This document shows, one piece after another, positions 5,720 through 6,038 of a DNA stretch of 6,418 bases. The position numbers and the translations under genes are program-made. Below the pieces are notes generated by a model. That model searched no databases, was not told the origin of the DNA, and saw only the letters and a program-made list of their open reading frames with translations. Origin of the DNA: a virus; the IMG/VR virus record IMGVR_UViG_3300013371_000001; one strand, written 5' to 3'. The stretch's first letter is position 1. Every line of letters begins with the position of its first letter.

Positions 5720-5923
5720 TTATTTTTTTGTTTCTACTTTTATAGCACCGTCTCTCGACACTTCGATAATTCCGTCGATAAGTGTCTGTTTAACGATTTC
5801 ATGGAATATTTCTGTATCTCTAAGCGGTTTCTTACCAGCTTTCACTAAGTCTCTATTTAGCTTCAATGCAATTTCATTTAATGCGTGTTCTTCCTCATCA
5901 GTGAAACGAAATGTCTTAGCCAT
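5720..5923 (-). CDS. 67-aa ribbon-helix-helix-like DNA-binding protein, candidate phage repressor/regulator, divergent from gII
   Basis: The ATG at 5923..5921 has AAGGA 7 nt upstream on the minus strand. The N-terminus MAKTFRFTDEEEHALNEIALKL fits a beta-strand then helix RHH (CopG/Arc/MetJ-type) pattern. It is the only convincing minus-strand gene. It faces an intergenic region full of direct repeats. Confidence 0.6.
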   Translation of the reverse strand: MAKTFRFTDEEEHALNEIALKLNRDLVKAGKKPLRDTEIFHEIVKQTLIDGIIEVSRDGAIKVETKK

Positions 5924-5960
5924 CACATATTCCTTTTATAAAATAATTTAATTCTAAATG

Positions 5961-6038
5961 AATTTGTGATTTGTGCTTGTGTTTATATGTGATTTATGTT
6001 TTTATCCTCCTAAAATGATTTGTGAATTTGTGATTTAC
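5961..6038. promoter_or_regulatory. Divergent control region with iterated TGTGATTT repeats (candidate operators) abutting the gII start
   Basis: TGTGATTT occurs at 5965..5972, 5988..5995 and 6029..6036. There is an exact 12-bp repeat AATTTGTGATTT at 5961..5972 and 6025..6036. TGATTTGTG occurs at 5967..5975 and 6016..6024. The last copy ends 2 nt before the gII ATG at 6039. Confidence 0.55.

Follow-up and report, generated by a model that had tools for sequence, protein, structure and literature searches.

A divergent small gene for a probable regulator and iterated operator-like boxes upstream of gII in an Acinetobacter inovirus

In the 6,418-nucleotide IMG/VR virus record IMGVR_UViG_3300013371_000001 (hereafter the window, meaning the whole stretch), a minus-strand gene for a protein of 67 amino acids (aa) lies back to back with gII, the replication initiator gene, across a control region that carries four iterated boxes. 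Comparison with related loci confirmed the gene and its boxes as real, conserved elements that are inherited together, and revealed that the boxes are independent of the replication protein (Rep), of the origin and of the gV type. Comparative genomics lends good support to a divergent regulator that would control gII through iterated operators, an arrangement analogous to the rstR–ig2–rstA switch of phage CTXphi, and the 67-aa protein is probably a small sequence-specific DNA-binding regulator of gII that works through the four boxes in an RstR/ig-2-like switch.

Putative regulator gene and boxes of the control region

The first-pass annotation, a reading of the letters of the window, had described a 67-aa minus-strand gene divergent from gII, and this gene is present, separated from gII by a 115-bp spacer (5924–6038). 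The minus-strand open reading frame (ORF) spans 5720–5926; the ATG at 5923 is the start in all homologues, and the 67-aa product begins with MAKTFRFTDEEEHALNEIA. Its homologues form more than 120 clusters of 70–100% identity, all from Acinetobacter and all unnamed or labelled "hypothetical". The protein matches the PHROG family phrog_5642 (E 1.6e-22), which carries no assigned function. Among 25 distinct coding sequences, variable sites were distributed over the three codon positions as 29/10/61, so that 61 of the 67 third positions vary, and synonymous codon differences outnumbered non-synonymous ones (7218 vs 2605). This pattern indicates a real gene under purifying selection.

A profile search of 1.8 billion representatives defined a wider family of 43 clusters with the pattern M.KT.RLT..EE..L..KA.EINK.LV..G..P.RDSEL.H.IL followed by a short beta hairpin. 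The segment K3-T-F-R-F-T8 of the regulator is invariant, and R6 is kept in at least 90% of the wider family. In a tblastn search of the regulator against GenBank phages, the only hits were two metagenomic Dulem viruses, in both of which the protein is annotated as hypothetical. Some homologues bear the source name "site-specific DNA-adenine methylase", which we regard as an annotation artefact because the 67-aa protein has no methylase domain.

To place the boxes in context, 39 loci were gathered from genomes and IMG/VR, and their control regions were alignable throughout. All invariance figures refer to 15 non-redundant control regions, any two of which share less than 95% identity. The gene and the control region contain the following elements:

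5720–5923, minus strand: 67-aa regulator gene (ORF; stop codon 5720–5722, ATG at 5923), PHROG phrog_5642
5930–5935, minus strand: regulator Shine-Dalgarno sequence AAGGAA, 7 nt before the ATG at 5923; its CCT core is conserved in the alignment
5951–5956, minus strand: candidate leftward (regulator) −10, TAGAAT; TATAAT, TAAAAT or TACAAT in relatives
5958–5972, plus strand: putative operator box 1, ATGAATTTGTGATTT, with its core TGTGATTT at 5965–5972; 5955–5971 invariant except 5963 (~90%)
5972–5978, plus strand: degenerate heptad TGTGCTT, following box 1
5977–5982, plus strand: candidate rightward (gII) −35, TTGTGT; TTG invariant; 17-nt spacer to 6000–6005
5988–5995, plus strand: putative operator box 2, TGTGATTT; invariant in all relatives; in the spacer of the candidate gII promoter
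6000–6005, plus strand: candidate rightward −10, TTTTAT (TATTAT in several relatives); 6000 and 6003–6005 invariant
6011–6016, plus strand: alternative rightward −10, TAAAAT, from promoter scoring
6014–6021, plus strand: putative operator box 3, AATGATTT (AGTGATTT in most relatives); TGATTT at 6016–6021 invariant
6021–6027, plus strand: degenerate TGTGAAT, contiguous with box 3
6029–6036, plus strand: putative operator box 4, TGTGATTT; 6029–6035 invariant; ends 2 nt before the gII ATG

The earlier reading had counted at least three box copies, and TGTGATTT indeed occurs exactly at 5965, 5988 and 6029 and nowhere else in the window. These three copies fall within a 72-bp span, with an expectation of 0.63 for the whole window. 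The 12-bp repeat that had been noticed is likewise exact (AATTTGTGATTT at 5961 and 6025, 64 bp apart), and the last box ends at 6036, 2 nt short of the gII ATG at 6039. In addition, we found a fourth conserved box, (A/G)TGATTT at 6015–6021, and a repeat unit longer than 8 bp, namely the 15-bp direct repeat (A/G)TGAATTTGTGATTT, present as ATGAATTTGTGATTT at 5958–5972 and GTGAATTTGTGATTT at 6022–6036. Dinucleotide shuffling of the genome produced three copies of an 8-mer within 80 bp in 7 of 1000 trials; the AT-rich spacer shuffled by itself did so in 49 of 5000 trials and gave an exact 12-mer repeat in 82 of 5000. By themselves these figures are only moderately significant; the conservation of the boxes across relatives is decisive. 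Boxes with at most one mismatch were not enriched elsewhere in the genome (12 found, 11.85 expected). A fifth, inverted box, ATCACATAT at 5922–5930 over the regulator start codon, was rejected as probably due to chance, because it is not conserved in relatives, which read CATTTGATA or similar.

Conservation of the boxes across replication modules

The invariant blocks of the control region are 5955–5971 (5963 at ~90%), TTG at 5977–5979, 5988–5995, T..TAT at 6000–6005, 6016–6021 and 6029–6035. The regulator and its four boxes were invariant in the 15 relatives while 61 of 67 third codon positions varied. What follows the boxes differs from locus to locus. Some loci continue with gII, which encodes 407 aa and has no Shine-Dalgarno sequence in the window type and in a second subclass, encodes 408 aa behind a GGGG Shine-Dalgarno sequence in others, and encodes 492 aa in yet others. 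Elsewhere a small ORF comes first, of 67 aa before a 411-aa gII or of 72 aa/83 aa before a 385-aa/496-aa replicase. The gII (Phage_CRI) classes behind the same boxes are 31–38% identical to one another, and the 385-aa replicase belongs to Rep_trans, an initiator family unrelated to Phage_CRI. The gV gene also differs between loci, with at least four unrelated types behind unchanged boxes. Thus the boxes travel with the regulator, to which they are always adjacent, and not with the replication protein or the origin. As a separate observation, the Rep_trans phages (loci L029, L031, L033, L034, L036 and L002) share a conserved 72–74-aa ORF (MDKEQAFEIVAKVIFDRG...) between operator and replicase that has no Pfam match.

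Next to the regulator gene, on its 3′ side, we located the replication origin:

5650–5694, plus strand: (+)-strand origin core, homologous to that of M13; hairpin GAGTCCAC...GTGGACTC and palindrome TCCCAAATTTGGGA

This segment (GGAGTCCACGTCTTCTGGTGGTGGACTCTAGTCCCAAATTTGGGA) aligns with the (+) origin core of M13 (5769–5815). At the same position 3′ of the regulator gene, phages of the 492-aa Rep class have a related GTCCAC hairpin and those of the MLDFL class have GGGCACACT..TCTAATAGTGTGCC, and no origin hairpin was found there in the Rep_trans class. The comparison of Rep classes in relatives thus indicates that the origin co-varies with Rep and the boxes only with the 67-aa protein. We considered the boxes as Rep-binding origin iterons and discarded this idea, because the M13-like origin lies elsewhere, at 5650–5694, and changes with the Rep class while the boxes remain unchanged.

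These data also bear on a role of the protein at the origin, in which a NikA/MobC-like factor would bend DNA by the (+) origin and aid nicking or loading by pII, the boxes serving as an enhancer like domain B of M13. The only weak sequence similarity of the protein is to NikA, a ribbon-helix-helix (RHH)-type relaxosome accessory protein, one source labels a homologue "Mobilization protein BmgB", and the gene, whose end lies 25 bp from the origin palindrome, occupies the place of the M13 enhancer and gII promoter. However, the protein and its boxes are shared by three divergent Phage_CRI classes and by Rep_trans, with different origin hairpins or none at that place; moreover, the gene separates the boxes from the nick hairpin, 270–390 bp away, and the boxes overlap promoter-like elements and the gII start. 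We therefore consider an origin-accessory function unlikely. In comparison with the Ff phages (M13/f1), gII and the (+) origin core of the window are homologous to those of M13, but M13 has no divergent gene between origin and gII, and its gII has a GGGG Shine-Dalgarno sequence, which the window gII lacks.

This lack had been pointed out before, together with the possibility that the repeats control gII translation, and only the former was borne out. gII is the only major gene of the window without a purine-rich Shine-Dalgarno sequence. Its start at 6039 is supported by alignment of the product with the N-terminus of M13 pII, and upstream in-frame starts are not conserved, because the box-to-ATG distance varies (2–3 nt) in sister phages. 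In Ff phages gV binds the gII leader and represses gII translation; by analogy, gV or the 67-aa protein would bind the UGUGAUUU repeats of the gII leader at the RNA level. Such binding would fit the position of box 4, 2–3 nt from the ATG, and the absence of a Shine-Dalgarno sequence, both found in two gII subclasses (window 6004–6041; loci L017–L019, L027, L028 and L035). However, the gII leader RNA was no more structured than expected by chance (z −0.04), boxes 1 and 2 precede every plausible start site and are equally conserved, the boxes stay constant over the at least four unrelated gV types, and other relatives have the same boxes with a GGGG Shine-Dalgarno sequence inserted behind box 4, ahead of the start codon. 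Translational control through the repeats is therefore highly improbable in our view. The missing Shine-Dalgarno sequence is possibly a way to keep initiator synthesis low.

The earlier suggestion to compare the module for heteroimmune variants proved fruitful among distant homologues (30–57% identity). Where their context could be retrieved, most lie in inovirus contigs and once more diverge from a Phage_CRI rep gene, and each lineage has 3–5 iterated boxes of its own in the intergenic region, an arrangement that can be called "heteroimmune-like". The boxes are TGTGATTT in direct and inverted copies in L045, AAATTATTTTTGYAAAAGTWA and its inverted copy in L043, whose boxes follow AAAAGTWAC, three copies of GTTATTTGTTYAC in Dulem virus 63, and three or four copies of (T)ACATGCAT in L053 and L051. 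This pattern would be expected of a regulator family with lineage-specific operators.

The same comparison speaks to a host factor as the reader of the boxes. TGTGA is a half-site of the CRP/Vfr type, and a host regulator that reads TGTGA might occupy the boxes, leaving the 67-aa protein an antitoxin-like, Xer-accessory or anti-defence role; one regulator homologue does follow a Fic/Doc-type gene in a three-gene operon, and DNA binding by the 67-aa protein itself is something that we infer. CRP/Vfr-type sites were ruled out, since the inverted TCACA partner that such a site needs 6 bp away is absent from every box. Furthermore, diverged proteins have other boxes at the same position, as expected if the partner is encoded by the phage but not if it is a conserved host factor, and protein and boxes are always adjacent. 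A host-factor explanation is accordingly very unlikely.

Predicted fold and proposed switch

The AlphaFold monomer models of the 67-aa protein were confident, with a pLDDT of 87.6 with a shallow alignment and 92.5 (pTM 0.70) with a deeper one. Both place residues 1–8 in an extended segment, followed by helices at 9–28 and 36–49 and a beta hairpin at 52–64. The N-terminal strand alternates polar and hydrophobic residues and precedes two helices, as expected of RHH proteins; compared with the usual RHH fold, helix A and the inter-helix loop are longer and the beta hairpin is extra. The closest sequence match is NikA of R64 (RHH; PDB 2ba3, PF21983), which remained below threshold: the PDB profile gave E 0.23, the Pfam NikA-like family gave E 0.011 in 3 of 36 members, the three being distant ones, and hhalign gave a probability of 43% (P 2.5e-4) over 24 columns. 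A search for NikA relatives, meant for a stronger profile–profile comparison, yielded only 11 near-identical sequences. The similarity covers the strand and helix A (TLRFSPVEDETIRKKA vs TFRFTDEEEHALNEIA) and stops thereafter. NikA also differs in its site of action, which is oriT, where it works with a relaxase, rather than a promoter. No helix-turn-helix (HTH) family was found for the regulator in Pfam even at E up to 10, and the predicted topology, in which helices of 20 and then 14 residues flank a 7-residue loop, does not correspond to the HTH (HTH_3/XRE) arrangement.

The RHH-like N-terminus proposed in the first-pass annotation thus stood in part: the strand-helix-helix order recurs in the models, and Foldseek, Pfam and NCBIfam gave no match at threshold, with NikA below it. 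An RHH-like fold is plausible, with the chances about evenly balanced, and the protein may instead represent a distinct small fold. Similarly, the claim of a fold different from that of RstR agrees with the missing HTH match and the other topology predicted, and the RHH identity it implied stayed sub-threshold.

We then examined how the boxes lie relative to candidate promoters. In the leftward −10, positions 1, 2, 4, 5 and 6 are kept and position 3 is free (TAnAAT), and variation at this position alone is as would be expected of a real −10; promoter scoring of 26 sequences ranked it first among minus-strand −10 elements in 23 of the top-two calls. On the rightward side, an alternative promoter, TTGTGC-N18-TATGTT, overlaps the candidate listed above. 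A leaderless or extended −10 gII promoter (TGTGAATTT) was dropped because the motif is not conserved, most relatives having TATGAATTT. With the candidate promoters so placed, box 1 is flanked by the leftward −10 on one side and the rightward −35 on the other, box 2 falls within the spacer or at the −10 of the rightward promoter, and boxes 3 and 4 are at about +5 to +25 relative to the candidate rightward start. This overlap of the boxes with conserved promoter-like elements suggests repression of gII together with autoregulation.

The sign of control could also be the opposite, with the protein binding the boxes and switching on a weak gII promoter. The rightward candidates are poor, TTTTAT having no A at position 2 and a consensus scan having passed none, and box 1, just upstream of or overlapping the candidate −35, is at a position some activators use. 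However, box 2 in the spacer or at the −10 and boxes 3 and 4 past the likely start are at typical repressor positions. In addition, divergent repressors beside rep are the rule in integrative inoviruses, and the small regulators of this kind that have been tested, RstR of CTXphi and Pf4r of Pf4, are repressors. Activation is thus quite unlikely.

For the favored repressor function, we propose the following mechanism. The regulator would act as a dimer and read DNA through its invariant N-terminal strand KTFRFT in the RHH manner, binding the four GTGAT-core boxes of the 115-bp divergent control region. With box 2 in the rightward promoter spacer, box 1 abutting the −35 and boxes 3 and 4 over the transcript start, occupancy would silence the operon for replication (gII, gX, gV and the genes after them); from box 1, just upstream of the leftward −10, the regulator would also restrain its own production. 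Alongside the neighbouring M13-type origin and an attP of the XerCD/dif type, the switch would hold the integrated or episomal phage at low replication, making the regulator and boxes a functional counterpart of CTXphi RstR/ig-2/PrstA.

The likeness to rstR–ig–rstA noted earlier was upheld at the level of architecture, not homology: the layout mirrors attP–ori–rstR–ig2–rstA of CTXphi, including a folded dif-like attP and dif-like junctions. In both systems a small gene is divergent from the replication gene, several operator copies lie over the rep promoter (a candidate promoter in the window), the regulator occupies the prophage end, where the origin and a folded dif-like attP for host XerCD are also found, and tandem prophages occur along with a short RS1-like satellite of regulatory and replication genes only. 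RstR is an HTH protein of the Cro/C1 type whose operators are long sites bound by tetramers, whereas the 67-aa protein has no HTH match and a predicted strand-helix-helix-hairpin order. Moreover, rstR and ig-2 are hypervariable between CTX types, whereas the Acinetobacter cassette is nearly invariant and paired with different Rep families.

A second parallel is the RHH repressor omega of pSM19035, which binds iterated WATCACW heptads (PMC3074150). Omega too is a small protein with short iterated boxes over promoters. The window boxes carry WGTGATW, the reverse complement of WATCACW (PMC3074150), or a one-mismatch version, and the DNA-reading strand of omega, KTVRVR (sequence per PDB 1irq), resembles KTFRFT of the regulator; both parallels are suggestive. 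An omega-like RHH ORF has also been reported in the Pseudomonas filamentous phage PMBT54 (PMC10534721). On the other side, the sequence relationship to omega is undetectable (hhalign probability 0.2), and the regulator has a helix A longer by ~8 residues, a 7-residue inter-helix loop and an extra C-terminal beta hairpin.

Several results weigh against a repressor of this type. Searches of the regulator against Pfam, NCBIfam and PDB sequences found nothing at threshold. Foldseek comparisons of the models with PDB (two runs) and BFVD gave best E values of 0.2–0.9 and TM of at most 0.4 in PDB, and this outcome did not change as the deeper alignment raised model confidence to pLDDT 92.5; the best 50 Foldseek matches contained no RHH entry, the models being monomeric while RHH proteins are obligate intertwined dimers. 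In hhalign, omega (P 0.33) and Arc (P 0.11, aligned in the expected register) were non-significant and ParG gave nothing. Omega needs contiguous heptads, whereas the window boxes are 15–26 bp apart with only degenerate second heptads. The candidate promoters are weak, and a simple consensus scan yielded no strong one. A residue-to-box code built on strand residues T4, R6 and T8 was abandoned, because ATLRLT proteins use ACATGCAT boxes; there is no simple code, as the same strand residues (T, R, T) go with different boxes. Inside Acinetobacter, protein and boxes are almost without diversity, unlike heteroimmune rstR, and homologue P0122 follows a Fic gene instead of adjoining a rep gene. DNA binding by the regulator, like the promoter positions, repression as the sign, the RHH fold and the role in lysogeny or immunity, is something that we infer. 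Finally, a strong role in exclusion is doubtful because some strains are reported to harbour several different Af prophages (PMC11209303).

Separately from these points, locus L040 (3427–4204) contains a small operon of a 56-aa ORF, a 129-aa Fic/Doc-domain protein and a 67-aa regulator homologue (55% identical), with no adjoining rep gene. This operon, with the homologue as its last gene, may be a three-part toxin-antitoxin-regulator module.

A bolder proposal is that a new DNA-binding fold family (strand, long helix, helix, beta hairpin), one without structural neighbours in the PDB, and its four-box operator form a portable "replication-lock" cassette that confers genus-wide cross-immunity; we regard it as rather unlikely. 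Inoviruses would swap the cassette between Phage_CRI modules, Rep_trans modules and minimal RS1-like satellites. Since the protein and its boxes hardly vary across Acinetobacter species, a single resident element could silence the replication of many otherwise unrelated incoming Acinetobacter inoviruses. In the gII message, the missing Shine-Dalgarno sequence and a box 4 that abuts the ATG would act as a further layer of control, keeping the initiator minimal.

For PHROG 5642, the repressor interpretation defines a candidate repressor with a base-resolved operator map and a promoter model. One cassette serves phages with unrelated replicases, and in many uncultured inoviruses the neighbour of rep is a related protein with other boxes. 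If its role is confirmed, the cassette would account for lysogeny or for maintenance at low copy number, as well as for possible cross-immunity between inoviruses of Acinetobacter; it would also supply a compact orthogonal repressor–operator set.

Lysogeny context and gene map

Upstream of the origin, the window contains a candidate attachment site:

5537–5636, plus strand: putative folded dif-like attP of the CTXphi type; arms TTCGCATAA...TTATGTAA and TTACATA...TTATGCGAA

As single-stranded DNA this segment is predicted to fold into a long forked hairpin (dG −27.9 kcal/mol, z −9.1) with two inverted half-site pairs, and its arms resemble XerC and XerD half-sites, as in CTXphi. By these features it appears to be a CTXphi-type attP for host XerCD. 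In loci L008, L013 and L016 a single half-site abuts unrelated host DNA, marking a prophage junction at a dif-like site, and tandem copies are present in L008, L023 and L032. Locus L036 (1563–5782) has two tandem copies of a 2229-bp unit that consists only of the regulator, the 72-aa-class ORF, Rep_trans, gV and attP, and that we interpret from this gene content as an RS1-like satellite of an Acinetobacter inovirus. A second, unrelated tandem element of 2.8 kb follows it (5936–11146), which suggests an array of Xer-integrated elements.

Filamentous phages of A. baumannii have been described with a "replicative/regulatory module" and probable use of XerCD, the regulator not being characterised; such prophages are common, occurring in about 15% of strains, some of which harbour several different Af prophages (PMC11209303). 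Effects of filamentous prophages on virulence and biofilm formation have been examined (PMC11209303, PMC12285184).

Bases 6312–6418 of the window are an exact copy of bases 1–107, and the window is therefore read as a circular genome of 6311 bp. The ORF map and family searches gave the following genes:

6039–6418 and 1–951 across the circular junction, plus strand: gII, replication initiator, 407 aa, with Phage_CRI and G2P_X_C domains
959–1294: gV-sized gene, after gII
1884–2147: major coat gene
2292–3707: gene for a large adsorption-type protein
3707–3985: gVI-like gene
3985–5199: Zot/gI-like gene

The gII product matched Phage_CRI (E 9e-45) and G2P_X_C (E 7e-16) in Pfam. With a gene layout typical of inoviruses, the window is a circular Acinetobacter inovirus. 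It has no annotated close relative, since a near-identity DNA search of GenBank phages gave a single match, a 63-bp stretch shared with Acinetobacter phage M02.

Between the gV and coat genes are tiny Cys/His-rich ORFs at 1291–1446 (51 aa, CADCG...HKPHC) and 1509–1598 (29 aa, CKKCG...CIHFYKC), both of which may encode zinc-ribbon proteins; the 29-aa ORF was found again in relatives (L021, MAEYIYKCKKCGAEF...; L019). Past the Zot-like gene, at 5255–5344, is a long imperfect hairpin of repeated GAGTGTCT/AGACACTC motifs (single-stranded DNA z −2.1), which may be a packaging signal or a (−)-strand origin. Inoviruses usually carry a strong terminator right after the major coat gene, and directly past this gene in the window, at 2160–2207, a GC-rich hairpin is followed by a T-run (AAAAAGCTGGGAGG...CCCAGCTTTTTT).

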